Source of the DNA: Balanoglossus misakiensis
Taxonomy: Eukaryota > Animalia > Hemichordata
Length of the DNA stretch: 64,000 nucleotides
Direction of reading: 5' to 3'
Assembly (NCBI GenBank): GCA_040954595.2
Contig: CM082588.2
Span: 10,524,844-10,588,843 of the forward strand
The position numbers and the translations under genes are program-made. Below are positions 12,001 to 64,000 of this stretch, piece by piece. Below the pieces are notes generated by a model. The model was not told where the DNA came from and made no database searches. It saw only the letters and a list, made by a program, of their open reading frames with translations. Position 1 is the stretch's first letter. The number at the start of each line of letters is the position of its first letter.

Positions 12001-13247
12001 ACAGTGACATTGAATCTGATTCTTTGCATTAGGGCAAATGGCGAAGCAAGCTTGATGATGCATCACGGTAGATATTGATGCAAGCACTTCGCTTTGACAT
12101 GGGTATAAAATTCATATGGGGATTTCAAGTTGATTATAAATCCCTGGGTTAATATGTGGCCGAAAACACTTTTATTTGCCATTGCTAATGCTATGGCGAC
12201 ACTAAATCTGATTCTTTGCATCAGGGTAAATTGTAAAGAAAGCTTGATGATGCATCAGTATAGATGGTGTTTCAAGCCGTTCAAGTTAACATTGCAATAT
12301 AATGCATATGGGGATTTAAAGTTGATTGTAAACCCCCAAGTTAATACATGGCCAAACGCTCAGTAAATTGACATTGCTAATGCTATGGTGACACTGATTA
12401 TTTGCATCAGGGTTAATGGCGAAACAAACTTGATGATGCATCAGGGTAGATGGTATTTCAAGCCCTTCACATTGACATTGGCATATAATGCATATGGGGA
12501 TTTAAAGTTGAGTGTAAATCCCTAGGTTAATACATAGCCAAAAGCACTGTAATTTGACATGGCTAATGCTACTGTGATACTAAATCTGATTCTTTGCACC
12601 AGGGCATATAACGAAGCATGCTTGATGATGCATCAGGATCAATGGTGATGGAGACACTGCACTTTGACATGTGTATTTAATGCATATGCACTGATGTTTA
12701 AAGTTGACTGTAAATCGCCAGGTTAATATGTGGCCAAAAGCACAGTAATTTGACATTGCGAATGCAATGGTGACATTGAATCTGATTCTTTGCATTACGG
12801 CAAATGGCGAAGCATGCTTGACGATGCATTACTGTAGATAGTGATGCAAACACTTCGCTTTGACATGGGTATAAAAAGCATATGGGGATTTCAAGTTGAT
12901 TATAAATCCCGATGTTAATACCTGGCCAAAAGCACTGTAATTTGACATTGCTAATGCAATGGTGACACTATATCTGATTCTTTGCATCAGGGCAAATGGC
13001 GAAGCAGCTTGATGATGCATCAGGATAGATGGTGATGCAAGCTCTGCACTTTGACATGGGTATAAAATGCTTGCTGAAGGGGATTTAAAGTTGTCAAAAC
13101 AAACTTGATGATGCATCAGGGTAGATGGTATTTCAAGCCCTTCACATTGACATTGGAATATGGTGCATATGTGGATTTAAAGTTGATTGTAAATCCCCAG
13201 GTTAATACGTGGCCAAAAGCACTGTAATTTGACATTTCTAATGATGG
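1..13247. repeat. Satellite 1: tandem array of ~192-bp monomers with higher-order structure
   Basis: TGATGATGCATC recurs at 1, 193, 375, 567, 759 (period 192, some deleted monomers). Several monomer variants alternate. Identical spurious ORFs recur at a 4642-bp offset (2647/7289, 3558/8200, 4008/8650). The array continues off the left edge. Confidence 0.97.
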
Positions 13248-23783: not shown

Positions 23784-23937
23784 TGTGATAGTATTGTCAT
23801 GATCACGTGATTGTCACATGGTCTGTATACGTGATTTCCTGTAACTGTTAGTTCCCGCGTGGTTGTCATTCAATAAACATCACTTCTGTGGAACTCCGTC
23901 GTTGTCGACTGTCAATAACCCCTCCCCGGACATCACA
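23784..23937 (+). repeat. 5' LTR (154 bp)
   Basis: TGTGATAG...CATCACA, contains AATAAA; identical to 28631-28784. Confidence 0.96.
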
Positions 23938-23941
23938 TAAA

Positions 23942-23953
23942 TGGCGACGAGGA
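23942..23953 (+). promoter_or_regulatory. Primer binding site, probably tRNA-Ser(GCU)
   Basis: TGGCGACGAGGA 4 nt after the 5' LTR; complementary to a tRNA 3' end ...UCCUCGUCGCCA. Confidence 0.8.
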
Positions 23954-24037
23954 TTTAGTTGTCTAAATTAACTATCGAAGAACATACGCAAGCAACCTTT
24001 ACGAGATTTGGTGACTTCTTAGCCGTGATTTGAGTGC

Positions 24038-25580
24038 ATGAAAATGTCTACACCCGTAACGCTGTCCGGACTGCCAGGAGTGGCGGGATTCGACTGTGAA
24101 GGCGAACCGGAGGCTCTTCAGCAAAGGTGGGAGCGTTGGCTTCAGGAATTTGAACTGTTCGTAGCAGCTTCTGGTGTTTCAAATAATGCGCAGAAGCGTG
24201 CCTTACTTTTGCACATGGCTGGAGCGGGCATCAGAGACATTGTTAGCACTAAATCTGAAGATGAAACTGGTGACGTCACAAACTGCGCAACGTTGATAGC
24301 ATGTTTGGATAAACACTTTCAACTGCAGAAAAACGTTCCTATGGCGAGACAGAAGTTTTACAGCGCAACTCCCACGTCCGGGGAGACGGTCGACAGCTAC
24401 GTAATACGTCTCAAGAACCTACTGAAAGACTGTGATTTTCCCGAGACGGAAAAAGACAACCAGATAAGAGATCGTGTCTTGCTCTACATCAGCGACAAGG
24501 TGCTAAAAAGCAAGCTGTATCGTGAAAAGAATTTGGACACTACCAAACTACTACAAATCATACGGTCGTATCACGACAAAGATGCACTAGTTTTGGTGTC
24601 TGGTACTCAAGCTGTGAGTGCAAATGCAGTCAATATTGGCGGTAAACGTACGCGCGCCAAAAACAAAATGGCGGACTTAGCCTGTTTCCGTTGTGGAAGG
24701 AAAGGTCACATGCAACGTGAATGTCGCGCCAGTACAAGTGGTAGTTCTCGCAATGCCGAACAAAAATCCGACCGGTGTTTCCGATGTCAAAAACCGGGAC
24801 ACAGAGCTGCAGACTGTCGTGCTAAGTGGGAAGACTGTCCGTCTAAAGACAGTGAAAATGGCAACAGTCGAGGCAGTGGTGGTAACCGCAGCGCACGTGG
24901 ACGTGGCCGTACGCGTGGTGATGGTCGCGGTACACACAAGGTAGCTCAGACGACTACTGATGCAAACGCCGATGGTGGCCATGCAGACGTCGAGACTGAC
25001 GAGGAGAAAGCGTACTATGCTTTCAATGCTGCTTTCCGTGCTTCCAGTGGGAAGGACCTCACTGATACAGGTATTCAGATCGAGAATCAACACGTGCCGG
25101 TTATCATCGACAGTGGTGCTACATGTAATCTCATTGGTGAAAGACAATTTCGCAGACTTGCTGAAAAGCGTGGTGTGAAAGTTCGAAATTGTAACAATAA
25201 AGTGTTTACCTATGGTTCTAGTAAACCTTTAGATATATTGGGTAAATGTGCCTTACATGTTGAAGCGCCTACTAAAAAGAAATGTATTGCTGATTTTATA
25301 GTGATCAAGGCTGATCAACCGATTTTGTTGAGTCGGAGTACTTCTGAGAATTTAGATATGTTGAGAGTTGGAAATGTGAATCTGTACACGATAAATTCAA
25401 TATCTGCTGATAATTCTTCGCCAATTCTTGCAGAATTGCGGAGGAAATATCCTGAGGTATTTAATGGGTTGGGTAAGTTAAAGGGCTACAAGCTCCATTT
25501 GCATATTGATGAGAGTGTCAAACCCATAGCCCAGTACCGGCGAATTCCTTTCAACCGCCGTGCTAAAGTTGTTGAAAAAA
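24038..25580 (+). CDS. gag: Gag-protease part of the Gypsy polyprotein
   Basis: Two CCHC knuckles (CFRCGRKGHMQREC, CFRCQKPGHRAADC) and protease IIDSGAT. The frame is lost at the A-run 25575-25580. Confidence 0.93.
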
Positions 25581-28379
25581 CTCAACGAGCTTCAAAAGCT
25601 GGGAGTAATAGAGAAGGTTTCGGGTCCGACCTCTTGGGTCAACCCCCTTGTAACAGTACAAAAGCCTGATGGGGATATCAGACTATGTCTGGACATGAGA
25701 AAAGCAAATCAAGCCATTGTTAGGGAAAGACACCCTGTTCCCACCATGGATGAAACGCTAGAGGAAATTTCAGGGGCCAAGGTATTTTGCAAGCTTGATA
25801 TGAATATGGCTTTCCATCAAATTGAGCTCGATGAAAAGAGCAGGGATATTACAACCTTTTCAGGGCCCAACTCTTTGTATCGCTACAAGCGTTTAGTTTT
25901 TGGTGTGAACATGGCGACTGAAAAGTTTCAAAATCTAATTAGCCAGGTTTTGAAGGGCTGTGAGGGTGCCCACAACATGCATGATGATATTAGAGTAGTA
26001 GCTGAAAATTATGAGCAGCTGCATGCCAGAGTTGGGAAAGTGATCAAGCGTTTTAGTGAGCATGGTTTAACGCTGAACTTTACAAAATGTAAGCTAGGAG
26101 ACAGTATGATATTCATGGGTCACTTGATGACGGCCCAGGGTATGAAACTCACTGATGAGAAGGTCAAAGCTATTGTAAAAGCTCGAACGCCAACTGACAA
26201 ATCAGAATTGAGAAGTTTCTTTGGGCTGGCTCAATTTTGCTCAAAATATGTCGATAAATTTGCAACAGTGACAAGCCCACTGTGGGATTTGACTCGCAAA
26301 GATGCAAAGTGGAAATGGCTTCCCAAGCATGAGAAAGTATTCAATCTCATCAAACATAAATTGACCACAAGTCCATTCATGGCTTATTTCAAGCAGGGTG
26401 CTAAAACTCGAGTCACTTCTGATGCATCGCCCGTTGGTGTTGGAGCAATCCTTGAACAAATGCAAAGTAATGGTTCATATCAACCAGTGTACTATGTTAG
26501 CAGAAAGCTTACACATGTTGAGTCGAGGTACTCTCAGTTTGAGCGAGAGGCGCTTGGAGTTAAATGGGCATGTGAGAAACTTCAGCAGTTTCTGCTAGGC
26601 AGTCATTTTGAGGTCAGAACTGACCATAAGCCTTTATTGAAAGTATTCAGCCCTAACTCCAGGCCCCCTTCAGCTAGAATTGAGAGATGGCTGTTATATA
26701 TGCAACAATTTGATTATCATATCACCCATATCAAGGGAAAGAATAATTATGCGGACATGTTGAGTAGATTGCCCGTGGACGAACCATCTGACAACTATTG
26801 TAGAGAGACTGAAGATTTTGCATGTAGTGTTGTTTTAGAGGCTATGCCATCTGCTATCACCCCACGTGATATTGAGAGAGAATCTGCAAAAGACCAGAGC
26901 TTGCAATTGGTTGAAAAGTGTATTACCTCTGCAAATTGGTCAAAATTGAAGTCTTCACCCTATTGGCATGTGAAAGACGAATTATGGTTGTATGGCAGAT
27001 TGATCATGCGTGGTAACAGATTGGTTGTTCCTCAAGTTTTGCAAAGAAAAATCTTGAAAATTGCACACCAGGGTCATCAGGGAATTGTGAGGACAAAGGC
27101 TCGTTTACGTGACAGAGTTTGGTGGCCAGGAATGGACAGGGATGTGGAAAAACTGATACGATCCTGTCATCCATGTCAATTGGTCAGTGCCAGGCCAAAC
27201 CCAGAGCCATTATTACCCACACAGTTACCTGAAGGACCATGGTTCGATTTAGCAGTTGATCTTTTGGATGTATGTGATGGTGAGAAATTACTAGTGGTAA
27301 CTGATTTATACTCTAGATGGCCTGAAGTAGTTTTGTTAAAGAAAACAGATGCTGCCCATGTCATAAAAGCCATGGAAGCTATGTTTCTTACACATGGGTT
27401 GCCTTACTGTGTCAAATCAGACAATGGTCCACCTTTTACCTCAGCCGAGTTTGAAGGTTTCCTTGATTACTTAGGTATTGATCATGAATATTCCATTCCA
27501 TACTGGCCTCAGAGCAATGGAAGTGTTGAGAGGCTGAATGAAATAATTTTGAAGTCTGTACGAATTGCTAAATTGCAAAAGAAAAGTTGGTACAAAGATT
27601 TGACACATTTTCTATTTGAATATAGAAATACACCCCATACTGTGACAGGCATATCTCCTGCTATGGCTCTGATGGGAAGAGAGTTTAGGGACAAAATTCC
27701 TAGACTGAGAATTCCATCCCAAACAATCAATGAGTCTGATTGGCAAATCAAAATGAGAGAAAGAAACAACAGAATGAAAATGAAACAAAAGTTCTATGCC
27801 GACAACAGGAGACATGCCACTTCCTCAGATATCAGGGAAGGTGATACTGTTTTGCTCCAGCAAGCATTTAGGCAAAACAAACTCACTCCCAATTTCGAGA
27901 CAGAACCATACAAAGTCATCCAGAAAGATGGAGGTGCGTTATTATTGGAAAACTCCAAAGGTGTAAAAAGAAGGTCCACTGGACATGTAAAGAAATATGT
28001 TGAGGAATATCCAGAATTTTCCTTCCAGGGCACTGAATGGAACTCCAAACATTTGACATATGAACAACCTCAAAGGGTTCAAAATGGTGTTCCATCCTGT
28101 AACCCCCATATCCATGATTTGTCTACACATAACAACCTGGATAACTTGCCAGTATAACCCGTCTGTTCTAGTCAGAAATCAACTGGACCAGCATGTCCTA
28201 GTCCTGTTTCACCTACTGGTACAGCATCGTTGGAAACGATTGTAAATGTTCCTCCAACAATGCCAGTGACAAATTCACCTAAGACAAATGTAAACCCCAA
28301 TAGTACTGATGTGAGACGCTCAACAAGAATAAAATCTAAACCTCCTTGGCACAAAGACTATTGCATGCCAGAAGGATAG
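25581..28379 (+). CDS. pol: Pol (RT-RNase H-integrase); in-frame TAA at 28155-28157 in the C-terminal tail
   Basis: RLCLDMRKAN, KLDMNMAFHQI, NMHDD, SDASPVGVGA, TDHKPL, HQGHQG..CHPC, SDNGPPF, SNGSVER. After the TAA the frame continues 74 codons to RRSTRIKSKPPWHKDY...TAG at 28379. Confidence 0.93.
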
Positions 28380-28630
28380 ATTATATTGACATAAGACTGT
28401 CCACAAACATTATGGAATGAGTTTCTGTAGAGCAAATTTTCTCTTGGAGATTTGTATTTTCCTAGTTATGAAGTTCTCAAGTTCTTGTTAAGGTTAAGGT
28501 TCTGTTTGTTTTCATTTGTTAGAACATGATCATTCACAAAGCATTACAATTTGACAGTGTTGGCAAATTTCATACTTTCCAAAGCGAGTTGTAAACTTAA
28601 AGTACAAGTTTTCTTCTAAAGTTGAGGAGA

Positions 28631-28784
28631 TGTGATAGTATTGTCATGATCACGTGATTGTCACATGGTCTGTATACGTGATTTCCTGTAACTGTTAGTT
28701 CCCGCGTGGTTGTCATTCAATAAACATCACTTCTGTGGAACTCCGTCGTTGTCGACTGTCAATAACCCCTCCCCGGACATCACA
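28631..28784 (+). repeat. 3' LTR (154 bp)
   Basis: Preceded by purine-rich aaagttgaggaga; identical to the 5' LTR; followed by TSD ATCAT. Confidence 0.96.
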
Positions 28785-38166: not shown

Positions 38167-39939
38167 TTGGAAGGGACTGCTTTAAAAGATTATGTTAGAG
38201 AGGAACAAATTAGACAGAGGGATCTTAGGGCTACTGAGAGAGAGGAGCAGAGAGAAGATAATAGGCGGCGCGAGGAACATGAGAGAGAGATACTGAAAAT
38301 GCAAATTCACTTACAAGAATTAAAATTGAAAGGGGAAAATACAGAACAGCAGGTTACTGAAAATAATTTGGCCAAAGCGCGTGCTCCGAGACTACAGGGT
38401 TTTCGTGAGGATGTTGATGATATGGATGCGTACCTTCAACGTTTTCAGCGCTACGCCACTGCTCAGAAGTGGGAAAAAGATGACTGGGGGTGAATCTCAG
38501 TGCATATTGTTACAAGGTAAGGATGTATCCACATACAACCAAATGCCTGCAGCGTCTGCAAATAATTATGATGAATTGAAACCAGAGTTATTGAGGGCTT
38601 ACCAGTTAAGTGAGGAGAGTTTTCATGACAAGTTCCGTTCGTGTATGCCACATTATGATGAAAGTGCTCAAAAGTTTATGGACCGTATTGGTGACTATTT
38701 GGGCAGATGGGTAGAACTGGCTGGTACTCCAAAGACGTACAATGGGCTTACAGATCTGTTACTTCGAGAGCAGTTTATTGGAGTATGTTCCAGAGACATG
38801 GCAATGTTCATTAGAGAGCGACGGCCAGAGAATGTCCAAGAGATGGTATCTACTGCCTCAAAATACTTAGATGCCCGAGGGTGGTGGAAACTGCCAAGTA
38901 ATGCCAAGAATAATCCAAGGAGCCAGCCGACAGCAAATACCAAGCCTTCTGTATATCCAAATCAAGTAAATAAGTTTAATAACAAAACCAATGGTTCCCA
39001 TGTTTTTAAAGGTACGTGCTTCGTATGTGGTAAAGGTGGTCATATGGCCAAAGATTGTAGAAGTAAGCCAAAGATGCATAAGACGGCGGTATTGTTAACT
39101 GAAGAAGATAGAAACTATCCACCTAAACAAGAATGTACACATTGGGGCAACCGTCAACAGCCCAGGGGACTAGACACTGGTTATGCATGTATGGTGGTAG
39201 CAATGGAAATAGATAAAACAGATGCAACACTGAATAAGGAGTTCGTGTTACCATGTGGTCATAAGCTCCCAGTGATGAGTGCTGCTTGTAGTGCCCATGG
39301 AGTGAAGAAGATGCCGGTAATGAAGGGATTGCTCGATGGTAAGCTGGTTAGCGTTTTGCGTGATAGTGGGTGTAGTAGCGTGGTAGTTCGAAGAAGTCTG
39401 GTGTCAAGTAATCAGCTGACTGGTGAGTACAGGACGTGTGTTCTGATAGATGGGACTATTAGAAGAGTACCTGTAGCCTCTATAAAAGTTGATACCCCTT
39501 ACTTTGTTGGTGATGTTACTGCACTGTGCATGATGAACCATGTGTATGATTTAATACTGGGCAACATTGATGGTGTATCTGACCCTTCGAATCCTGATAC
39601 TACATGGCAGGAACCATTGCCGACATGTAGACTGTGTACAACTGTTGGACAGGTACCAGGTTTAGCAAATGCTGTGGAGACCAGAGCCCAGAAGATAGCC
39701 AACCAAAAACCAATCAGAGAACTTAAAGTACCTAAAGCTGTTGGTGAAGTGGTGATGCCAGGGAAGCTTCAACAAGCTCAAGAAGAAGACTCCACTCTTG
39801 ACAAACTACGTGAGAAGGCAATTTTGGGTGACGAGAAATTGACTAGGAATGGAGGTAGGTTGAAGTTCATCATGAAAGATGGGATCCTGTACAGAGAGTT
39901 CAATTCGCCAATGGTCCAATTTGGTGAAAAGCTGTTACA
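38167..39939 (+). pseudogene. Gmr1-like gag (coiled coil, SCAN-like capsid region, CCHC) + protease
   Basis: DDMDAYLQRF; LLLREQFIGVCSRDMAMFIRERRP (SCAN-like); CFVCGKGGHMAKDC; LRDSGCS. Frameshift in the G-run at ~38486-38490. Confidence 0.87.
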
Positions 39940-40023
39940 CACTGCGGGAAATACTAGAGCTATGTTGGGCAGTATTCCGCGAAGCGCGAGCTCCCATGTT
40001 CACCATAGCAACGCATTGCCAAG

Positions 40024-40674
40024 ATGGCGGCGCCCGTGTTGATCGATGCCGAGAAAGTTATAAAACGCAAATTGCGAGAGGCAAAATCTGTGCTTAAACG
40101 TAAAAAATGCGTGTCGGACAATCTGTATATACACCCACTCTTTGATGAACTTGAGGATGTGACAACAAGGGCCATATTTCGAAACGACAAGCTGTCAAAG
40201 GACAAGATTCGTTGGCGTGACGTCGCCGTATTTCCCATGTTTCAGCGTGATATGACCTACTGGCAGAAGACCTTCTACGCTCGGCTGTCAACATCCCCGT
40301 CGTTAAGGTCACCATGGCAAAGCAGCTTTACACGACAAATGCCGAGGGAAGTATTTGATGTTTTTCATCAGTTTGCTACTCGGACCGGTTTTGGTATCGA
40401 CGAGAAGACCTCCAGGGCTATCATAACCTTGACCTTCACAAGTTCCTTGAAGCTATTGTATGTGATACGGAAAGGTTATTGCTACGAGGGCGCTATCGGT
40501 CAGCATACAGAGAATATCCTAGAGAAGAAAGTCCGTGGAAAGAGGGTAGCTGTTATATTCACACCTGAGAAGCCCTGTGTTGTGAAATATTTTATCAACA
40601 GGGAGACTGTTGCTGTTAGATTCAGCTTTGGTGCCTGGAACAAACATGGAATTCCATTACATCCAGAGAACTGA
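40024..40674 (+). CDS. Intact 216-aa accessory ORF of unknown function inside the transposon
   Basis: Strong Kozak context aagATGG 84 bp from the element end; uninterrupted ORF; basic N-terminus KRKLREAKSVLKRKK; AATAAA at ~40803. No domain recognised. Confidence 0.72.
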   Translation: MAAPVLIDAEKVIKRKLREAKSVLKRKKCVSDNLYIHPLFDELEDVTTRAIFRNDKLSKDKIRWRDVAVFPMFQRDMTYWQKTFYARLSTSPSLRSPWQSSFTRQMPREVFDVFHQFATRTGFGIDEKTSRAIITLTFTSSLKLLYVIRKGYCYEGAIGQHTENILEKKVRGKRVAVIFTPEKPCVVKYFINRETVAVRFSFGAWNKHGIPLHPEN

Positions 40675-41526
40675 ACCCTATTGATTTTTCACACTGATTC
40701 AACCCATCTGAGGAACATTTTTTTCCTGATCTGTGGCACATGTTGTTCAGTGTAGATGTATCAGTCTGTCAAGACAGTCCTCTCACAATTGACATATATT
40801 CAAATAAAAAAAGGAAAATTAGAAGACTCAAAAATTCATCACTTGTCTTTATTTATCTACATTCAATACAAATGAACAGATAATGTTTACAAAATTTCCT
40901 AAACTGTAAAATTCTTTTTTTCCATCATTATTGTAACATAGATTTTTCATTAGTTTCAGAAAAAAATGTATGTTACCTACAATCAACATTGATAAGTCAA
41001 TCAAAACTGCTCATCTAACAGTTAACCAGGATTTCTGGTCTAAATTTAATTAATATTTACAATTAATTCCATGACAAAATTTATAAATATCAAGAATTTG
41101 ATGAGACTTAATTCTTTATTTTTTCACAAATTCATTAAAATTTCGTGCAGGTGCAGAATAAACAACTCCTCAAGAAAAATGTAAAACTTTTCTATCAAGC
41201 TTATGTATGTCATACATTTTAATTTTGCAAAGCACTGCAATCACTATACGATTAAGGGTTTATTCACAATACTTAATAGTGGTAAGATAAGTTTCAATTT
41301 CCCTGTCCCCATACATGCACACATATACAAAATCCCATAAGAAACATATCATCTCCAGTTCAAAAAGTGTGAATTCATGTGATTTGTGATCTCCATTTTT
41401 ATTAAATGCAGCTCTCAACTACAGATGAGTCTTTATAATTCTGTAATGTAATTAATACTATAGTTATCCTTTAATTCTAAAGTAGCACACAGTGACACAA
41501 TCCACTGTTTCAAATTCAATCATTGT

Positions 41527-44500
41527 TCACAGCATAAGTTTCTTGAGTTTATTTGATATTTTACCAGTGACAGCTGCTTTTTTTATGTCATCCATAATTG
41601 GGTCAACACATATTTCACAGGCAGTCATTGTTTCATTTTTTTAAATTGCCACACATACAGTAGCCTGCATTCTCATAATATCGACTGGGAATGTATTTTT
41701 CTTTTTCTTTAAGCTCAAATTGACCTACATTTGCATTTCTATAGTTGTCAGCTTTTGGACTTTTGTTCCTCAGCCAAAAAAGCATCACATATTCGTGTCG
41801 AAATATGAGGGCCCACCTATTTTGAGGTGTAGAATTTTCACTGAATTCTAGCAGGCGTAGATGCTTTGCCTCTCTGCCTTCCATTGTGTTTAGGCCTAAT
41901 CCCAGACTGAATTGCTTATAGATACTAGTGGTGTGTTTTGGGACTACATAACCAATGTGCCACACAGTATTATTGACATTCAGAAACAGGGAATGTAGAT
42001 TAAAGTACCACCGACACTTATGCCTAAGTACAAGCAAATCTCCCTCATTTATGTTGAATCGTGAGAATAACAAAGTGATATCTCTAAGCAAGATACCAGT
42101 ATATGTGTAGAGAGCTAATTGAGCCCGACGCTTTGGTCTGTCTGTATCGCTTCTCAATGCTAATACCAATCCTATGAAATGCCAAGCAAGTTTGCGAGAC
42201 TCCTCACCAGTGAAGCGATAAACCACATTAATGTTGGCATTTGACTTGACACTATTTTCATTGAAGTATTTTACAATCTTATTATACAACTTTCCAGCTT
42301 TTACTTGATATTTTAGGGCAGACAGGAATTTGTACAGATATGACTCGTTAGGTAGATTCTCAATTTTAACTCCATTTTCACGACCCTTTTCCGAAGTGTG
42401 GGCAACTGCGTCAATCAGTAATCGTTGGAAGTAGTATTGCCATGCATTGTTCTTTAAATGCAATGGCTCAGCCTTGGCACAATCAATAAATCTACCCAAC
42501 GGTGGTACAAATTCCTGTCTTGACCTCAGACTGGCTATAAATTGTGTGATTTTGGGTCGCACTGTTTTGGGCTTTCCAGTTTTAATTTTCTTAGTTGACT
42601 TCAACTTTTCAACAGCTTCTGCATCTTTAATTCTTTTCTGATATTTCCATTCATCCCACTTCTGACCTGGGCCAATTTCTGCTCCAATACAATCAATATC
42701 ATTTTTGGAACGTTAGCAAATGAGCTGAAATACTTTGCTGCATTGCTTAGTTCTCCAGACACACTGGCCAATCCCTTCTGATCAAAGGGTAAAAGTGACA
42801 CCTGAAAAGTTACATCAAGACTGCCAACTTTATATTTACGTTTCTCAATACACTCAAGGTCTTTTGACAATGCAATTGCAAATTCAATCATTATGGGGTC
42901 ATCCTCTTTTATGTTTGCCCCTAATAGGAGAAAATTGTGGTCTGGGCTAGCAACACGGTGGGTCACATTCAAGAAACTAACTAGCCATGCAGTGGCCTGT
43001 CCATGTTTGCCAAACGGAGCCCCGTCAGCACCTATACTGATTTGAAATGAGCCCTCCTGTTTACCGAACCAGTTAAGAATATCAGGCTGTGTTTCCCCCA
43101 TATTTAACACTTTCGCTGCGGGAGGGCATTTTCTGCGCCGGCAGTCAGAATGCGGGAGGCGCATAAATGCGCCAAGATCGCGTCCGTTACTTGGTCTGTT
43201 CTATTTTATGTTCGTTGCTTATTTACTCATTTTGTATGACTATATATAGGACAGGTGTCAACCCTAATTGAGCATGCGCATATGTATTGTAAACAATCAA
43301 GTCGATTTTGTCATCAAAGGGTTTCCTTATACAGCTGATTTTAGGTCGCCCCGATCATATTTTTTCATTCACTTGGTATTTAAAAATGGCGACATGGGCA
43401 AAGTTTGATGCCGACAAAGTTCTTGAACAAGTCTTTCAGGATAGTGACAGCGATCATAGCGATAGCGGAAGCCAAATTACGGACAACAACATCATAGAAC
43501 CAGAAATAGAAGCCAGACACGGAGACAACAGAGTAGAGACAGAGAGAGAGGGAGGGTTTTTGTCATGTTCTCGGACGTCGTAACGTTGATGGTGACACGC
43601 GGTGGGTTTTGTATGACGTAAATGACAATTACACACCGGACTGGTTGTCTGTATACGATCGTCGCTAAGGTTTATTAGTTGACACTGATGACTTTGCACC
43701 GGTTGACTTTTTTCAGCTGTTCTTTCCTGGTGATGTGTTTGAGTTGATGTCATTGTCAGAGCAAACTGATATGTACACCACACAATTTTTTGACAACCCT
43801 GCAATTGATGAGTTGCCCTTCCGGTCAAGATTTCGCTAGATGCCTACTTCACTGAATTAAATGAAGGCGTAGGTTTCTTTGCAAATCTTGATGGGACTTT
43901 GCCAGAAGTCTATGTTGTCAGAGTATTATATCCATTTGAAATGAATTGCCAAAACAGTACTATGCTAATGAATTTTTTTTAAATGTGTGTATATTCATAT
44001 TTACCAACCTTGATTTCTTCAACTTGCAATTCATTAAAACGTAGAGTATTTAATAAATTACTTAATTAATTTATTTTATTATTATTATTTATTTACAAGT
44101 TCAATCATTCACCTTTTCACTAATAATCTATATTTCTTTCTCAGATTTTAAACATGTATACATGTAAATGGTGGGCATGATTTGATAATTGTTTTTATGG
44201 TCCATTAATAAATTTGATCAAATTTCTTGCTCAAAAGTCACTTGTTATTCCCTTTTATACAGGGGGAAGTTGTTTTTGACTATGTTTGTCTGTCAGCTGT
44301 GATACAATGAATTAAATACAGTATTTCAGTCACTTATATTACAATATCTGTTGTTTTTACCATATTTCGACAGAAATCCATTATGGCTGCCAGTGTCACA
44401 TGACCAATTAATGGTCATGTGACCATTTTTCAGTTTTATTATGTTGGTTGTCTTATAAAATATACTTGCTGGAAATATCATTGCATATACTTTCATATTA

Positions 44501-46066
44501 CAAGAGATAGAGAGGGTAAAGTAAAACATTGTTTATTAGTTAAATTTACCATAGGAAACTACGCACAGGAATACATTAGCATATATTAACTACGCAGTGA
44601 AAGTGTTAAATATAAACTGGCAATCTTAATAAGCAACTCCTCAGGGTTTCTTTTTAAGCCGACTTGTTTGCCTTCAGATGATATAATTGGCTCAAGATTT
44701 CCAATGTCAAGGTTACTTACATACTGTACAACTTTTGTGTATGGGAGCAGTCTTGGTATTCTACAGCCAGAATGAATTTCTAATGCTTTCCTAGGATGTT
44801 TCAAGTTGGAGAACATCTGAAGTTCACTCTGCCTCAGACAGTTATATTTTCGTTTGGATAGTACTCCGCCCTCATACATAGTTCTGACACTCCTCACCAA
44901 ATTGTTCTCACTTTTCTCAAATTTACTGATGTATTTATCAAATACTGATGGCATTACTTTTTTACTGATTTGGGGAGAGGTTCTGAAGAATGTTTTCATT
45001 TGGTCAGGAGTGGCAGAATTAACAAGAGTATACCACAAACCATCAAGTGCTGCTTTTGGTGGATGTAGTACATTCGGTTTATTTATACCTTTGGCTGGGC
45101 TTACATCTGTAGTTGCTACATGAATATTTATGGCTGCTGATAAGGTTTCACACCTACGTTCATACTGTTGACGTCGCGACAGCTTCAAAGATTCACTATT
45201 ATCTGCACATACTTCAGTGTTCTTGTGGACCCATTTAGAGCGTTTCACATTAACAACATCAACAGGAATCTGAAAGATTAAGTGTGTGATAAATATATAC
45301 TAATTAGAATATAATCATTATATATAAAATAAAATCTTCTTACAAGTTAATCATTAATTTAAATGTCCTTGATAAGAAATACACACGTGTAGCCTGTATT
45401 TTTCTGACAACTTCTGCAATAAAAATCCTAAAAAATATACATAGTTTGTTGGAAAACCTAGATGTTTTGCATCAAAGCTGAACCCATTTTGTTATCATTG
45501 TTTACACAGGATCATGTGACATGAAGTTCAAAAAGCGAATTTGGGCTAAAATTTGAAGAGGATTTATACAAATCTGAGATTTTTAAAATTATGACTAAGT
45601 CTATTTATCTGATCTAGCTTACCTTTCTCTTATTATTCTTTGTAGCTAAGATCTCACAAATCTTACTGTTCTTCTTCTCTAGTCTAGCTAGCTGGGTTGA
45701 GGATCTTTTTACTAGTCTCCTAGCTGCACTCAACTTATTCAACTTATCCTGAATTATGCTTTCTTCCTCATCTCTCTTTCTCTTTCTCTGTCTACACCAC
45801 TCTCCTAAGTTAAACCTGTGTTTAGTCTGTCCTCTCTTTGTTCTAACTACCAATAGGTTGTTGGCCACGCTCCCAGACAAAGATCTAGTCTTCAATTTCT
45901 CCTGATATAGTTGTTGTAAACACTTCTCTTCAGCTACCTGTCTCGCTATCTTTTGGTCCTTTGCCCACTGGCCTATGTTGAAGTAACTTTTCCCTTTTCT
46001 ATTCGGCATAACAATAGACAAACTTTTAAGAAGTGCGCTACTCCTGTTGAATAGTTTGCCCCACAT
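41527..46066 (-). pseudogene. RAG1/Transib-like DDE transposase (one intron, piggyBac insertion, two 1-nt frameshifts)
   Basis: Exon ~46066-45623, phase-0 GT-AG intron 45622-45270, exon 45269 onward. The frame rejoins across the piggyBac as SLYLNMGETQ. Motifs SIGADGAPFG (D), PFDQK (D), EPLHLKNN, FTGEESRKL, GLGLNTMEGREAKH (E). Frameshifts at ~42705 and ~41636; stop at 41527-41529. Start codon uncertain. Confidence 0.78.
43108..44605 (+). mobile_element. Internally deleted piggyBac-like element
   Basis: TTAA TSD at 43104-43107 and 44606-44609; TIR CACTTTCGCTGCG / CGCAGTGAAAGTG. Decayed N-terminal transposase (acidic QDSDSDHSDS; PVDFFQLFFPGDVFELM; LQILMGL) at ~43386-43920. Confidence 0.85.
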
Positions 46067-46918
46067 GGCTCTAAATCTATACCTGAAAAGGGTGAACAAG
46101 AGAAATATCTTTACAATAATTATCTATCCGAGGGAAGCAAAAACAAAACACCTGCTCATTATACTTCCTCCAGAAATTGAGGTCAAAGGTGACATAGAAA
46201 GAATGTGGGTAACCTTACCATAACAATCTCGCCCATTCATTTTTTTCTTATTTCGTTTTCACCCTCGAATTTCCAGCGAATTATATCAAGAATATATTTT
46301 AGCACAAACTATTGGTTTCTGATTTTTCAGTTACGGTCTTATTTTCTGTCAATTCTATGAACAATATCACCATGTCGCCGAAAATTCGAAGCGCCGCCAT
46401 TACAATCAATGTAACCCGTGCTGCTGCCAAGGAACACACAGGGTCGTATATTTTCGCTTGGTATGATTTCGTCATATTGCTTGTAGCAGCATTTTAAACA
46501 TGGAATCCTATGTTTACGTATAAAAGACTAAATTCGTATGGTTTTCAAATTGAAAAAAACAATTCTGTGAAGCTGAATCGTTGTAATTTTTAGTGTTTGT
46601 TTATGGTTGCTTAGGACGGCTTCTGCTATAGCAACGGCCAGGGACTGTCAGCGGGTGATCAAAATGTTCAAGTTATTTGGCTGATACACATAAATAACAC
46701 AGCAGAATCGCAACTTTATTTCATATTGTCTCTGACATCTTGCTAATTTTACTAAACAAAACTTGGAATAAAGCAATATTACTCACCGAATTATGCTGTG
46801 CATCGACAGCTGTGTTCGATCGCGAACGCCATTACTGTGTCTAATTAAATATTCATGAGCTTCATAGGCTGCCACGGAAATACTGCCCATAGGTGGCGTC
46901 GTTCAAGCTGTAGTGACA

Positions 46919-54609: not shown

Positions 54610-57600
54610 GAGTGTGTCACACAGGAGACAGTTGGGATTATAGTCATAATCTACCTTAGTTTGTTGTCAACAACCAGATGTGGTCGCATTCCGTGCATCC
54701 GTGCATATTTTGGAACAACGACTCTATCGAACAGACGTATTTCAAACACCTTGGAGAAAAACATCGATGACCAGTGGAATTGACTGTCGCTTGAAATCCG
54801 ATAGGAATACACCTGTTTACGGTGGACGATACCGACACTCCTCTGCTAACTTAATCTGCTCTGCTAACTATACCTGCTTTGATTAAGTTGCGTCTAAAAC
54901 TTTCCTTACAATACAATGTGGGTCTCGACTGTCGGTCCCAACTATAGCGACGACAGCCTCGGTATGTTTCGCCGATAGCAATCCGGAGATGAAATTTGCA
55001 TACAGCAATATCTTTCAAGATAAATAATTTATGTCCTAAAGGTATTACTTTTAGTGGTCTGACGGAGACGTTTTCTGCTGTAACATGCAAAACCTGCGGC
55101 GGACCTGAGGTCATGTTGCGAACACTGTAGTTTTGTTACGCCCGCCATCCTTCGGACGTTTACCTCATCGGGGCTTCTTTGGGGAATCAGCCACGTCCGA
55201 AGGGTGAGAGTGTAAATTCTCTCCCTCTCCTTCTCCACCCAACATATTCATAGAGTCAGAGAGAGGTACCCGGCATATCGTAAACTTAACGAGAGGCATA
55301 ACGAGACTTTCAACAAGTTTTCCGAGTAACACAAATAGTTGTGGTTTATTACTGGTCACACGTAAGAATTACACGACTCTATCCATGCTCGTTGACTCCC
55401 GTCACGGATCTCCGGTGATAATAATGTGATATCAAATTTCACCACCTCTTATTAATACGTTAGTCAAGTATTATGTCATAAAAGGAACACGTCATCTTAA
55501 TATTTCTTAAACATGAACTTAGCGCGTGATATCTCTATCTCGTTCTGACATGTATCAATTACACAATCTTGTTTACTCTGAGTCAAATACCTATTTTTTT
55601 TTGGTGATTTTCACCGATGTTTTTTTTTTCAAAAATCGACGAACCAATGATTTTTTTCAAAATCGACGAAATTTTGAGATTATGCAAAGTCGAAAATTTT
55701 TCATTTTTTGATGATTTTCACCCATGATTTTTTTCAAAAATCTACGAAATTTTGAGATTTTGCAAACTCGAAAATTTGTCATTTTTTTATGATTTTCACC
55801 CATGATTTTTTTTTAAAAATCGACGAACCCATAATTTTTTTCAAAATCGACGAAATTTTGAGATTTTGCAGTCTAAAATGTTTCATTTTTTGATGATTTT
55901 CACCCATGTTTTTTTTTCAAAAATCGACGAACCCATGTTTTTTTTCAAAAGTCGACGAAATTTTGAGATTTTGCAGTCTTAAATTTGTCATTTTTTGATG
56001 GTTTTCACCCATGTTTTTTTAAAAAATCGACGAACCCGTGATTTTTTTTCAAAATCGACGAAATTTTGAGATTTTGCAAAATCAAAAATTTGTCATTTTT
56101 TGATGATTTTCACCCATGTTTTTTTTTCAGAAATCGACGAACGCATGTTTTTTTTCAAAAATCGACGAAATTTTGAGATTTTGCAGTCGAAAATTTGTCA
56201 TTTTTTGATGGTTTTCACCCATGTTTTTTTAAAAAATCGACGAACCCGTGATTTTTTTCAAAATCGACGAAATTTTGAGATTTTGCAAAATCAAAAATTT
56301 GTCATTTTTTTGATGATTTTCACCCATGATTTTTTTTCAAAAATCGACGAAATTTTGAGATTTGCAGTCGAAAATTTGTCATTTTTTGATGATTTTCACC
56401 CATGATTTTTTCAAAAATCGACGAACCCATATTTTTTTTCAAAATCGACGAAATTTTGAGATTTTGCAAAGTCGAAAATTTGTCATTTTTTGATGATTTT
56501 CACCCATGTTTTTTTTTTCAAAAATCGACGATATTTTGAGATTTCGCAAAGTTGAAAATTTGACATTTGTTGATGATTTTCATGAGCTATAGCCTATGAT
56601 TTTTTTTTCAAAAATCGACGAAATTTTGAGATTTTGCAGTCGAAAATTTGTCATTTTGTTGATTTTCACCCATGTTTTTTTTAAACAATCGACGAACCCA
56701 TGATTTTTTTTCAAAATCGACGAACTTTTGAGATTTTGCAAAATCGAAAATTTGTCATTTTTTGATGATTTTCACCCATGATTTTTTTTCAAAAATCGAC
56801 GAACCCATAATTTTTTTCAAAATCGACGAAATTTTGAGATTTTGCAAAGTCGAAAATTTTTCATTTTTTGATGATTTTCACCCATGTTTTTTTAAAAAAT
56901 CAACGAACCCATGATTTTTTTTCAAAATCGACGAAATTTTGAAATTTTGCAAAATCAAAAATTTGTCGTTTTTTTGAGGATTTTCACCCATGATTTTTTT
57001 TTCAAAAATCGACGAAATTTTGAGATTTTGCAGTCGAAAATTTGTAAATTTTTGATGATTTTCACCCATGTTTTTTTAAAAAATCAACGAACCCATGCTT
57101 TTTTTCAAAAGTCGACGAAATTTTAAGATTTTGCAGTCTTAAATTTGTCATTTTTTGATGGTTTTCACTCATGTTTTTTTTAAAAAATCGACGAACCCGT
57201 GATTTTTTTTCAAAATCGACGAAATTTTGAGATTTTGCAAAATCAAAAATTTGTCATTTTTTTGATGATTTTCACCCATGATTTTTTTTCGAAAATCGAC
57301 GAAATTTTGAGATTTTGCAGTCGAAAATTTGTCATTTTTTGAAGATTTTCACCCATGATTTTTTTCAAAAATCGACGAACCCATAATTTTTTTCAAAATC
57401 GACGAAATTTTGACATTTTGCAAAGTCGAAAATTTGTCATTTTTTGATGATTTTCACCCATGTTTTTTTTCAAAAATCGACGAACCCATGGTTTTTTTTC
57501 AAAAATCGACGATATTTTGAGATTTCGCAAAGTTGAAAATTTGACATTTGTTGATGATTTTCATGAGCTACAGCCAATGATTTTTTTTTCAAAAATCGAC

Positions 57601-58181
57601 GAAATTTTGAGATTTTGCAGTCGAAAATTTGTCATTTTGTTGATTTTCACCCATGTTTTTTTTAAACAATCGACGAACCCATGATTTTTTTTCAAAATCG
57701 GCGAACTTTTGAGATTTGGAAAATCGAAAATTTGTCATTTTTTGATGATTTTCACCCATGATTTTTTTACAAAAATCGACGAACCCATGATTTTTTTCAA
57801 AATCGACGAAATTTTGAGGTTTTGCAAAGTCGAAAATTTTTCATTTTTTGATGATTTTCACCCATGTTTTTTTTTAAAAATCAACGAACCCATGATTTTT
57901 TTTCCAAATCGACGAAATTTTGAGATTTTGCAAAGTCGAAAATTCACCCATGTTTTTTTAAAAAATCAACGAACCCATGATTTTTTTCAAAATCGATGAA
58001 ATTTTGAGATTTTGCAAAGTCGAAAATTCACCCATGTTTTTTTTCAAAAATCGACGAACCCATAATTTTTTTCAAAATCGACGAAATTTTGAGATTTTGC
58101 AAAATCAAAAATTTGTCATTTTTTGATGATTTTCACCATGATTTTTTTTCAAAAATCGACCAAATTTTGAGATTTTGCAGT

Positions 58182-61100
58182 TAGTGCGGTATGGTATGTC
58201 ATGAAAAACAGCTCCCGTAGGATTGTTGTGCTAAAATTGATTTTTTTGCTGTTTTGGCTTCTATTGGGACCCAACTACCCGAAAATGATGGGGTGCAATT
58301 TTAAGGGCCCCTCCATCATATTTTTCTCGGGGGGGGGGGGGGTACTTCCGTTTTGTGGTATGATGTGTATTCCCGTAGGATTTTTGTGCTAAAATTGATT
58401 TTTTTGCTGTTTTGGCTTCTATGGGGACCCAACTACCCGAAAATGATGGGGTGCAATTTTTAGTGCCCCTCCATCATATTTTTTCGGGGGGGGGGGGGGG
58501 GGGGTCGTCACTCCTGTTTTGGCCTCCCCGAAGATATTTATTCACCTATCTACTCCATTTTCGTAGAATTTTCTGCTAAAGAATTTTTTTTTTGCTGTTT
58601 TGACACCTGGTCACAAAAGATCACATGCAAATTTTAGGGCCCCTCTATTACATTTGTGGGGGGGGGGGCACTTACATTCCGACAATCTTAACGGTATTTG
58701 TTCACCTATACCGTGTATTCTCGTAGGAGTTTTTGCTAATAGTTATTTGTTTTGTTTGCTGTTTTGGTTTCAATGATGAATAAACATCCCCAAAATGATG
58801 GAAATCAATTTGTTGGACCCCTCCATCACATTTTCTTGCAGGGGGGGGGGGTCACTTTAGTTTTAGCAGCCCTGGAGATATTTGTTCATAGTGTGACATG
58901 TGTATTTGTAAAGGATTTCTTCCAATTTCTTTTTTTTTAACTTCTATGGGGACCTAACTGCTCAAAAATGAGGTCAAATTTTAGGGCCTCTCCACATATT
59001 GGGAATCTTAAATATTAGACGGTTTATGGGTAAACATATCAGTTACCTACTTTTGTATCAGTTGTCATATATACTACAGCGCTATCTTATTTTTATAAAT
59101 ATACTTAGTTGAATTTTGACACTAACAAATCAACCACAAATATCTCTCTGGTTTGGACTTAGCATAATATACCTCCCCTCACCTTGGACCGCCACCCAAC
59201 TCATCACCACACTCATGTTTTCTATGGTTTACAAAAATATAGTATACTAGGCTATACCAAATAGTGAACACCTATTGCCTGGCCATGAGGGCCATAGCAG
59301 CCGTTTATTACACCCGAGGGGCCGTGAGTTACCAGAATCATATGCATATGATTCTGGTAACTTTTTCGTTAAGAGTTGTTTATTCTTTCGTAGCACAATC
59401 AATGTCTGAGATATTTACCATTGTACTAAAATTCTCATCGATATAAGTCTGTGCATAAACTCTGAAGTACGTTTTAATCAACACTTGTTTTTTGGGGTAT
59501 TAAAACGATATTCAGTTGAACTCATTTCAAAGTTAAATACTGTCGTAAATAAAGCCATATCAGTTGAAGTATTGTCTATTTTAAAGTAGTATTTTCAAAA
59601 TTTTCATGCCAATAGCAAAATAGTGCTGTAAAAAGCCCTTGAACTATGTCTTACTTCTAAAACTTGTTTTGGTAAACATTAACAATATCAAATTTGGCTC
59701 ATTTTGTAGCTCAATACTACTGAAAATAAAACAAGTCTGTGAACTACATCTCAGTTTTATTACTAAATACATATTGGCTATTTTCTTAGCACCGTAAGCA
59801 GCGTTTTACGTTCCAGTTCGATAGCTATTAGGACATTTTGCAATAAACTACAGAATTAATATGTAGATAAAAATAAGATTTGCGTGATCTGTGAAAAGGG
59901 TGCCACCCCTTCATCACAATGAGAGATAAATCATACGCAACAAATTGTCCTGAACTTCCCCCAATCAAAAAGAATGGGTGGAAATCGGAGAATGGCGTGT
60001 TTTATCCAGTAAAATGTCTTGCTCTCCCTGCACCAAAGGCAGTACTAGAGCTTATCAAATGTGGCTGCAAAGCAGGTTGTAGGGGACGTTGCAGTTGCTC
60101 AAAGAATGATTTACTATGTACTCCCCTCTGCAAATGCTATGGTGGAGACTGAAAACCAGGGGGAAATGTTCTTGAAGATAACGACACTGGCGATGAGTAG
60201 ATCAAACAGAACTGGGTTTCGTGAAAATGATGATTGAGAATACCAAGATATCAGAAAAGAATCGTTATGCTTCTTGGGTTGTTTATTGCACCGTCCGTGG
60301 TAGGGAGGGTGCCTCAAGGGTCCATTTTATGAGATGGGACTGTAGCTCGGAAAATAAACTAAAATACACATTATGTACTTTATTATATATAAAGGAGTTT
60401 TAATTTACCTTAGTATACTAAATTTAGAATAAACGAAAAAATCTAAGATAAAAAAAAACTACTGTTACAACGGGTTGGCGAAAACAAATATAGAGAACCC
60501 CCCCCCCCCCCACCAAAAAATGTGGTAAAGGGGTCCAACATTTTGCACACCATCACTTTTCGGCAGTCAGTCTGCATTCAAGCCAAAGGAGCAAACCAAA
60601 TTGCAAGAAATACCACGACAATACTAACCGTATAGTAAATAGGTGAATAAGTATCTTCAGGGTGGCCAAAACAGAAATGATTACCCTCCCCCCCCAAGAC
60701 ATGATGGAAGGTTCCAAAAATTTGAACCCCATCATTTTAGTTCTGGTGGAGCCCCATTGAAACCAAAACATCAAAGAAAAATAATATTTTTAGCAAAATA
60801 TTCTATGAGAAGGGAGTAAATAGGCCAACAAACAACTTCGGAGTGGCCAAAATGGAAGTGCCCCCCCCCCAAATAAAAAATGATGGAGGGGCCCTATAAT
60901 TTGCACCCGATTATTTTTGGCCAGGTTGGTCTCCTCCAAAGCAAACACAACAAAAACAAATTAATTGTAGCCCAAATTCCCATGATGATAGAGTAAATAG
61001 GTGAACAAATATCCTCGAGTGACCAAAACAGAAGAGACCCCCCGAAAAAAATTGATGGAGGGGCCCTAAAAATTGCACCCCATGATTTTTGGGTAGTTGG

Positions 61101-61331
61101 GTCCCCATTGAAGCCAAACAGCAAAAAAAATCAATTTTAGCAGAAAAATCCTACGGGAATACACATCATACCACAAAACGGAAGTACCCCCCCCCCAGAA
61201 AAATATGATGGAGGGGCCCTTAAAATTGCACCCCATCATTTTCGGGTAGTTGGGTCCCCGTAGAAGCCAAAACAGCAAAAAAATCAATTTTAGCACAAAA
61301 ATCCTACGGGAATACACATCATACCACACTA
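58182..61331. mobile_element. Non-autonomous AcademX-like element with ~800-bp TIRs made of tandem subunits
   Basis: Termini TAGTGCGGTATG / CATACCACACTA; 3-bp TSD AGT restores the satellite gcAGTcgaaaa. G-run repeat units at 58.2-59.0 kb are mirrored at 60.5-61.3 kb; Cys-rich remnant inside. Confidence 0.8.
59919..60152 (+). pseudogene. C-terminal Cys8/CXC zinc-finger fragment typical of AcademX transposases
   Basis: PELPPIKKNGW...PAPKAVLELIKCGCKAGCRGRCSCSKNDLLCTPLCKC; the upstream protein is missing. Confidence 0.72.
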
Positions 61332-64000
61332 AGTCGAAAATTTGTAATTTTTTGATGATTTTCACCCATGTTTTTTTTTTCAAAAATCGACGAACCCATG
61401 ATTTTTTTCGAAATCGACGAAATTTTGAGATTTTGCAGTCGAAAATTTGTCATTTTTTGATGATTTTCACCCATGATTTTTTTCAAAAATCGACGAACCC
61501 ATAATTTTTTTCAAAATCGACGAAATTTTGAGATTTCGCAAAGTTGAAAATTTGACATTTGTTGATGATTTTCATGAGCTATAGCCCATGATTTTTTTTT
61601 CAAAATCGACGAACCCATGTTTTTTTTTCAAAAATCGACGATATTTTGAGATTTCGCAAAGTTGAAAATTTGACATTTGTTGATGATTTTCATGAGCTAT
61701 AGCCCATGATTTTTTATTTCAAAAATCGACGAAATTTTGAGATTTGCAAAGTCGAACATTGGTCATTTTGATGATTTTCACCCATTTTTTTTTTCAAAAA
61801 TCGACGAACCCATAATTTTTTTTCAAAATCGACGAAATTTTGAGATTTTGCAAAGTCGAAAATTTGTCATTTTTTGATGATTTTCATCCATGTTTTTTTT
61901 CACAATTCAACGAACCCATGATTGTTTTCAAAATCGACGAAATTTTGAGATTTTGCAAGAACCCATGATTTTTTTCAAATTCGACGAAATTTTGAGATTT
62001 TGCAAAGTCGAAAATTTGTCATTTTTTGATGATTTTCACCCATGATTTTTTGCAAAAATCGACGAACCCATGATTTTTTTCCAAAATCGACGAAATTTTG
62101 AGATTTTGCAAAGTCGAAAATTTGTCATTTTTTGATGATTTTCATCCATGTTTTTTTTTTCAAAATTCAACGAACCCATGATTTTTTTCAAAATCGACGA
62201 AATTTTGAGATTTTGCAAGAACCCATGATTTTTTTCAAAATCGACGAAATATTGAGATTTTGCAAAATCTCAAAATTTCGTCGATTTTGAAAAAAAATCA
62301 TGGGTTCGTCGATTTTTTAAAAAAAAACATGGGAGAAAATCTTCAAAAAATGGGAATTTTGTCGATTTTTAAAAAAAAAATCATGGGTGAAAATCATCAA
62401 AAAATGACAAATTTTCGACTTTGCAAAATCTCAAAATTTCGTCGATTTTTGAGAAAAATCATGGGTGAAAATCATCAAAAAATGACAAATTTTCGACTTT
62501 GCAAAATTTTCAAAAATTCGTCGATTTTTGAAAAAAAAATGGGTTATAGCTGATGAAAATCATCAACAAATGACAAATTTTTGACTGCAAAATCTCAAAA
62601 TTTCGTCGATTTTTGAAAAAAAAACATGGATGAAAATCATCAAAAAATGACAAATTTTCGACTGCAAAATCTCAAAATTTTGTCGATTTTGAAAAAAGTA
62701 TGGGTTCGTCGATTTTTAAAAAAAATCATGGCTGAAAATCATCAAAAAATGACAAATTTTCGACTTTGCAAGAACTTCGAGATTTTCGTCGATTTTTGAA
62801 AAAAAAAATCGTGGGGGGGGGGGAAATCATAAAAAAATGACAAATTTTCGACTTTGCAAAATCTCAATATATCGTCGATTTTGGAAAAAAAAAAACATGG
62901 GTTCGTCGAAAAAAAAACGGGTGAAAATCATCAAAAAATGACAAATTTTCGAATTTGCAAAATCTCAAAAGTCCGTCGATTTTGAAAAAAAACATGGGTG
63001 AAAATCTTCAAAAAATGATTCTTGAAAAAAAATGGGTGAAAATCATCAAAAATGACAAAGTTTCGACTTTGCAAAATCTCAAAATTTCATCGATTTCTGA
63101 AAAAAATCATAGGGGAAAATCATCAAAAAATGACAAATTTTCGACTGCAAAATCTTAAAATTTCGTCAATTTTTGAAAAAAAATCATGGGTAAAAATCAT
63201 CAAAAAATGACAAATGTTCAACTTTGCAAAATCTCAAAATTTCGTCGATTTTTGAAAAAAAAAATCGTGGGGGGGGGGAAATCATCAAAAAAATTACAAA
63301 TTTTCGACTTAACAAAATTTTCACAAATTCGTCGATTTTTGAAAAAAAAAACATGGGTTCGTCCATTTTTGAAAAAAAAAACATGGGTGAAAATCATCAA
63401 CAAATGACAAATGTTCAACTTTGCAAAATCTCAAAATATTGTCGATTTTTGAAAAAAAATCATGGGTTCGTTGATTTTTGAAAAAAAAACGGGTGAAAAT
63501 CATCAAAAAATTACAAATTTTCGTCTTTGCAAAATCTCAAAATTTCGTCGATTTTTGAAAAATAAAATCATGGGTAAAAATCATCAAAAAAATACAAATT
63601 TTCGACTTTGCAAAATCTAAAAATTTTGTCGATTTTTGAAAAAAATCATGGGTGAAAATCATCAAAAAATGACAAATTTTCGACTTTGCAAAATCTCAAA
63701 ATTTCGTAGATTTTTGAAAAAAAATCATGGGTTCGTTGATTTTTGAAAAAAAAACATGGGTGAAAATCATCAAAAAATTACAAATTTTCGAATTTGCAAA
63801 ATCTCAAAATTTCGTCGATTTTTGAAAAAAAAACATGGGTGAAAATCATCAAAAAATGACAAATTTTCGACTTTGCAAAATCTCAAAATTTCGTAAATTT
63901 TTGAAAAAAAGTCATGGGTGAAAATCATAAAAAAATTACAAATTTTCGTCTTTGCAAAATCTCAAAATTTCGTCGATTTTTGAAAAAAAAAATCATGGGT

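Follow-up and report, generated by a model that had tools for sequence, protein, structure and literature searches.

A two-gene transposon of Balanoglossus misakiensis with a predicted RAG1-fold transposase and an inner box at the same distance from the tip at each end

We observed that a 64,000-nucleotide stretch of Balanoglossus misakiensis DNA (hereafter the window, always at its full length) carries a two-gene cut-and-paste DNA transposon, the two ends of which both start with CACT and share an 11-bp box, TGGGCAGTATT, which in either case occupies positions 27-37 counted from the tip (39966-39976 at the left end and 46889-46879 at the right end). The box belongs to an inner element that is found across the lineage at a fixed distance from the tip, equal at both ends. 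The transposase is predicted to share the fold of RAG1, the enzyme that shuffles antibody genes. As the best explanation of these features, we think it fairly likely that this RAG1-fold transposase reads each end twice, once at the CAC block and once at the equidistant inner box (about positions 23-37).

How spacer-measured RSSs arose from continuous transposon ends, and why RAG1 depends on a partner, has been studied in very few systems (RAG, ProtoRAG and HzTransib). The present lineage offers a natural range of ends, from a continuous 31-bp TIR (in the related family L068) to CAC and a box with an unmatched middle (in the window). In its predicted fold the enzyme lies nearer to RAG1 than Transib does, and it has a different partner and a 3-bp stagger. 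The questions of spacer, partner and target stagger become directly testable by comparison.

Boundaries of the element and its host context

The element is a 6,976-bp insertion (39940-46915) with ACA flanking it on both sides (39937-39939 and 46916-46918, from flank comparison). Duplication lengths of 2, 4, 5 and 6 bp gave no match at the element flanks, and only the 3-bp ACA fits.

A second insertion of 1,498 bp with 13-bp TIRs (43108-44605, forward strand) is nested in the element between TTAA duplications (43104-43107 and 44606-44609), and without it the element measures 5,474 bp. From the TTAA duplication we take this nested element to be piggyBac-like. It carries decayed coding remnants and is likely non-autonomous; a Pfam search of 43108-44605 returned no matches.

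The transposon interrupts pol of an LTR retrotransposon: gag and protease matches lie to its left, integrase matches to its right. The retrotransposon is bounded by 1,975-bp direct repeats, and since these are still 97% identical, the transposon insertion is young. The host spans 34345-54609 of the window and has a SCAN-like domain in its gag; its integrase precedes the reverse transcriptase, an order that we take to be Gmr1-like. Elsewhere in the window lies a second element of the Gypsy type (23784-28784); its gag and pol ORFs are long and its 154-bp direct repeats are identical, so that it is likely very recent. Large satellite arrays occupy positions 1-13070 (units of about 192/378 bp) and 55643-64000 (composite units of 27-106 bp, with a strand switch near 62270).

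The two ends in the window

The left end (39940-39979, forward strand) lies on the side of the partner gene and carries, after CACT, an outer motif (G8-G9-AAAT) followed by the inner box. The right end (46875-46915, reverse strand) lies on the 5' side of the transposase and starts with CACTACA. An earlier sequence-only reading had given the same end sequences and coordinates and had placed the box at equal distance from both tips, and all of this was confirmed. The box (as a 10-11-mer) occurs once per end and nowhere else in the 64-kb window. When pairs of random 45-mers of the element were compared, an in-register run of at least 11 was seen in 4 of 200,000 draws (about 2e-5).

The same reading had divided each end into a heptamer, a free 19-bp spacer and the box. 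Between the two 'heptamers' only 5 of the 7 positions are shared, 4 of them contiguous, so the 7 + 19 split is a choice. Positions 8-26 of the two ends match at 5 of 19. An extra copy of the box in inverted orientation, also noted earlier at the left end, is indeed present as a partial copy (39944-39955, reverse strand), with positions 11-16 pairing with 32-37 around position 24. It overlaps the left 'heptamer' and nine of the 19 'spacer' bases, and the left spacer is therefore not free sequence. The outer G-G-A-A-A-T of this end, which is kept as in the relatives L003 and L006, is also what makes the 'inverted box'.

An AARATGGCG motif, which we take to be YY1-like, was seen at the start of the partner gene (40022-40030) and, no more than 300 bp away, near many ends of the relatives. 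The sequence TCAGCGG recurs 40-70 bp inside several relatives' ends.

End layout across related families

The loci of the relatives were taken from metagenome data (the best 80 of 212) and are likely from corals, given the named homologs. Related ends were found by the drop in homology between copies, and then by pattern and by CAC..GTG pairing. The resulting matrix held 26 ends from 16 families; the families are kin, so the counts are not independent. Before counting, we dropped pattern hits that lay inside genes or had no end context (L001, L002:158, L003:8198, L005, L017/L026, L044:232, L048:1962, L052:239, L055:262 and the inner hits of L073-75), almost identical copies belonging to one family, and the internal end in the L048 family. 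L075, which has an 8-nt deletion, was excluded from the matrix because it is a copy from the same family as L073.

Information peaked at positions 1-9 (CACGCYGGG) and 23-33 (AAAW..GGCC) with a trough between them, the outer peak being partly circular because the ends had been located by a pattern derived from the homology-drop ends. Positions 11-22 were close to random across families, and the inner block stayed in register, with a weak consensus (less than 0.9 bit per position). With each family left out in turn, 15 of the 26 ends had their best inner-block score at offset 0, and 20 had it within 1 nt; at random CAC sites the corresponding counts were 23 and 68 of 718. The best inner score lay more than 1 nt off register at the remaining ends (6/26). 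Both window ends were best at offset 0 with a matrix built from the relatives only, and they ranked 9 and 38 among 1,778 CAC sites. The held-out ends of L081 had best offsets of 0 and -1. The register was the same at both ends in nine of ten related families and in the window, L003 being off by 1 nt. The inner-box spacing is thus conserved when the ends of related families are aligned, as the idea of a symmetric, RSS-like recognition would have it.

The 'free spacer' of that idea did not hold as a general rule. The relatives carry an outer block of 9-15 bp, and the 5' and 3' ends of 11 families matched at 14, 4, 17, 17, 18, 10, 12, 19, 12, 17 and 13 of the 19 'spacer' positions; that is, ten of the 11 match at 10-19 of positions 8-26, and only L003 is as low as 4/19. 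Contiguous identity between the 5' and 3' ends extended over 10-31 nt in 10/11 families, and in one of them (L068) it amounted to a continuous 31-bp TIR. The sequence-only reading had named an ordinary continuous TIR in other copies as evidence against itself, and at the level of the lineage this is partly borne out by the matched middles and the one continuous TIR. The 19-base 'free spacer' is peculiar to the window family, which stands at one extreme, with the continuous 31-bp TIR at the other end of the range.

A 3-bp duplication flanked 5 of 13 end pairings (11 loci), and duplications of 4-10 bp flanked none; L081 added one more 3-bp duplication (ATA). Several of the mismatched pairings share one flank with another contig, and these are probably chimeric assemblies. 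At the right end of L075, 8 nt were lost before the box, yet the matching 3-bp duplication was kept. Dyad symmetry was enriched in the relatives at centres 24, 25 and 30 (z of 4.4, 4.5 and 5.5 among 64 centres), a signal that is partly due to the self-complementary GGCC of the motif itself and to the kinship of the families.

Predicted fold and motifs of the transposase

The transposase lies on the reverse strand. Exon 2 (41530-45269) encodes the predicted RAG1-fold DDE core and the C-terminal Cys motif, and a predicted exon 1 (45623-46009, 129 codons) is joined to it by a GT donor and an AG acceptor in phase. A short motif of exon 1 recurs in P0050; this exon shows no Cys-rich cluster and no Pfam match. 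The window copy is broken by the nested insertion and by two frameshifts (near 42700-42780 and 41640), and its own transposase is dead. Its three main pieces are 69-79% identical to P0001, an uncharacterised Ptychodera flava protein that is also the best homolog of the C-terminal piece (75% identical). This piece found 76 long homologs and 824 cluster representatives, and the other named homologs came from corals, an anemone, a nemertean and an annelid. Pfam gave no meaningful transposase match in 65 aligned members (best E 0.006, to unrelated families), and PDB sequence searches with the transposase pieces and profiles gave nothing meaningful.

The fold was modelled on P0001, which is without the first ~195 residues of the protein predicted from the window. 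The AlphaFold model had a pLDDT of 91.6. Foldseek with this model gave top rows that were all RAG1 (E 6.5e-12), followed by HzTransib and BbRAG1L. With VIA-align, the model scored higher with RAG1 (Z 21.9, rmsd 3.8, 463 aligned) than with HzTransib (14.5); BbRAG1L gave 20.1, the P element 12.3 and the next match 7.7. These comparisons point to a predicted RAG1-core fold.

D181 (65/65), D262 (64/65) and E566 (65/65; P0001 numbering) are conserved among the 65 members and are predicted to form the catalytic triad, an assignment made by what we take to be the motif order of RAG1 and not by residue-level superposition. The CxxC (C(2)C) zinc motif was absent from the 65 members: neither the stretch that follows D262, which reads F/P-S-x-F (F283 in 64/65), nor the invariant columns contain a conserved Cys pair. 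For the H(3-4)H motif before the catalytic E, H545 was present in 63/65 members and a His at 540 in 24/65. Four C-terminal Cys are found in 60-63 of the 65 members, and a CxC...CxxC module ends the protein. Likeness to the NBD was seen in one VIA row only, which reaches RAG1 403-458 (Z 17.5, rmsd 6.5), and no GRPR motif was visible in the 65-member alignment. A conserved basic helix lies upstream of the modelled region.

The partner gene ORF2

ORF2 (40024-40674, forward strand) is an intact partner gene that is convergent (tail to tail) with the transposase, and it encodes a basic protein of 216 aa (39 K/R, 22 D/E). Its start is 85 bp from the left tip. ORF2 homologs were present in 34 of the 80 loci (the best 80 of 212), in every case downstream of the transposase and on the other strand; where the 3' flank measured 1.5 kb or more, 30/32 loci had ORF2. 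The distances between transposases correlated with those between ORF2 proteins (Mantel rho 0.54, 0/5,000 permutations, 16 representatives), and the two trees share clades. ORF2 gave a dN/dS of about 0.26-0.35 in five of seven close pairs (one of the others was too close and one was saturated) and is under purifying selection in these five.

In the ORF2 model, long helices precede an alpha/beta sheet. Pfam gave no kelch or PHD match among 22 ORF2 members, and the precomputed tag PF26709 is found on 22/22 ORF2 homologs. The single-sequence search was empty, and the fold searches were unconvincing (best PDB E 0.029; Z of at most 7.4, to the N-terminal helices only; TM of at most 0.27 in the viral library). 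An identity as Argonaute N/PAZ, considered from Atlas matches (0.93, low recognition), is weak, and a homolog gave no match.

Comparison with known systems

The element resembles RAGL/ProtoRAG and RAG1-RAG2 with its RSSs (PDB 4wwx, 6b40) in the predicted RAG1-core fold (Z 20-22). It also shares with RAGL/ProtoRAG the 5'-CAC termini, two convergent genes, bipartite ends with an inner box, and a Cys-rich C-terminal tail. ProtoRAG ends consist of TR1, a 27/31-bp spacer (TRsp) and TR5 (PMC8289069); bipartite ends have also been described for PflRAGL-A (PMC10462144) and for AanRAGL (PMC9435367). However, RAGL elements have 5-bp TSDs and RAG2L (PMC7204232), whereas the window element and its relatives have 3-bp TSDs. 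The RAG2L partner combines a kelch propeller and PHD, and here the partner is the non-kelch, non-PHD ORF2. The TIRs of RAGL/ProtoRAG are bipartite and asymmetric in length, in contrast to the equal spacing and GC-rich box seen here. The present lineage also has no CxxC zinc motif, its identity to RAGL/RAG1 is about 10-13%, and there was no sequence-level match to PDB.

Transib (HzTransib, 6pqn) is similar in its CAC termini, its heptamer-spacer-box layout and a related fold. RSS23-like TIRs occur in most Transib families (PMC1131882), and symmetric TIRs are known among Subgroup II Transibs (PMC9435367). A symmetric heptamer-spacer-box layout alone is thus already known from Transib. There are also 3-bp TSDs in a Transib lineage, in some Nozomi relatives (bioRxiv 10.64898/2026.08.26.747230). 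However, Transibs encode one protein (PMC4411706), and here a second conserved gene is present in nearly all loci with enough flank (30/32). The Transib ends read CACAATG + 23 + an A-rich nonamer, whereas ours read CACGCYGGG with the inner AAAW..GGCC at 23-33. Transib has both the C(2)C and H(3-4)H motifs; the window lineage is without C(2)C, and its H(3-4)H is partial.

The CMCT clade (EnSpm/CACTA, Chapaev/Chapaev3, ESTA, Plavaka, Lanisha; PMC12730594) shares 5'-CA..TG-3' ends, 2-5-bp TSDs and a DDE transposase, and EnSpm elements often have a second protein, as the window element has ORF2. The C(2)C motif, which is given for the whole CMCT clade and RAG1 (PMC12730594, section 3.1.6), defines this clade; it is absent in the window lineage, H(3-4)H is only partial, and there is no Pfam family match among the 65 members. 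Chapaev and Chapaev3 have an N-terminal Chapa zinc finger, with or without RING; in the predicted exon 1 of the window element neither a Cys-rich cluster nor a Pfam match was seen. Membership of CACTA/En-Spm on the basis of CACTA/CACTG tips and a 3-bp TSD alone was rejected, since the motifs do not fit.

The element is like RAGL and Transib in predicted fold and end layout, yet it departs from both in defining traits, and it lacks the C(2)C of the CMCT clade. What is new is the lineage, with its predicted RAG1 fold, 3-bp TSD and non-RAG2 partner. A literature search, which extended to sources other than Repbase and most subscription journals, found no description of it.

Proposed reading of the ends and alternatives

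In the mechanism that we favour, a transposase dimer would pair the two ends with CAC at the active site, nick next to CAC, open the flank as a hairpin and insert with a 3-bp stagger; we infer all steps beyond the predicted fold by analogy with RAG, ProtoRAG and HzTransib. Recognition of the inner box would fall to the N-terminal helical, NBD-like region and that of the outer block to the C-terminal CxC...CxxC module (at the CTT position), while ORF2 would serve as an auxiliary subunit. The window family has let the outer block drift between its ends while keeping the box at 11/11, and its dependence on the box would thus be greater than that of its relatives. This would parallel the outcome in RAG; NBD/nonamer and CTT/TR2 are described as redundant binding modes prone to loss (PMC10462144).

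The fixed equal spacing across the lineage and the predicted fold are the parts of the earlier RSS-like proposal that stand. Against a double reading of each end, most relatives' ends read as imperfect 30-35-bp TIRs and not as free spacers, the likeness to the NBD is weak, and the register is broken in L003 (by 1 nt), in L075 (by the 8-nt loss) and in the six ends that lie further off. More tentatively, these elements may form an undescribed branch of RAG1 transposases with a non-RAG2 partner, no CxxC site and symmetric fixed-distance ends. The window family would then have gone furthest toward an RSS-style reading (CAC plus a distant box, with free spacer sequence in between), on a second independent path from a continuous TIR to a signal sequence, with its intermediates surviving in coral relatives.

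We also considered that the ORF2 protein, and not the transposase, reads the inner box and then recruits the transposase to the CAC tip, which we regard as a minority possibility, perhaps one chance among several. In CACTA/En-Spm (TnpA) or Harbinger elements, it is the second protein that reads end boxes in this way. ORF2 is basic, always co-inherited and begins close to the left tip, and the presence of the left box in both orientations around position 24, together with the dyads in the relatives, would be in keeping with a DNA-binding protein that acts as a dimer. The combination of CAC..GTG ends and a 3-bp TSD is also En/Spm-like (PMC12730594). However, there is one box per end and no subterminal box array, the dyad signal is partly explained by GGCC and family kinship, and a domain tethered to the catalytic core would better account for the fixed distance from the tip.

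It is rather improbable that the ends are ordinary imperfect TIRs of ~35 bp under one transposase footprint, with no measured spacer, so that the comparison with RSSs adds nothing. The contiguous 5'/3' identity in 10/11 relatives, the 8-nt shift in L075 and the weak inner consensus are all in line with such TIRs. Nevertheless, positions 11-22 are near random across families while the inner block holds its register, and the window family (5/19 matches) and L003 (4/19) indicate that continuity is not needed.

We rejected, as very improbable, the view that the spacer mismatch reflects decay of the window copy after insertion or that the box match is due to chance: the copy is old enough to have acquired the nested insertion and two frameshifts, but decay would need 14/19 changes beside an 11/11 box, which cannot have happened where the host repeats differ by only 3% and ORF2 is still open and intact, and a chance match of the box has a probability of about 2e-5.

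Additional observations on related elements

Rfam searches of the window and of L081 found nothing, and viral contigs searched for relatives contained none. L081 was the one match in prokaryote genomes and lies in a MAG contig labelled Anaerolineae, where it is probably eukaryotic carry-over. It is a complete element (L081:4385-12926) with ORF2 and the ATA duplication, and it is situated among short repeats.

In four related families, part of the ORF2 coding region is repeated in inverted orientation, over 100-150 bp, on the upstream side of the transposase (L012:3705-3857 vs 7945-8100; L048:3128-3234 vs 9307-9414; L074:3230-3327; L081 near 5121 vs 12611). The element of the window is without such a copy. 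These inverted copies could form dsRNA or could come from exchange between the ends. In L047-L052 (for example L048:3240), an internal end-like sequence lies ~850 bp inside the outer left end, as in a nested or composite structure.
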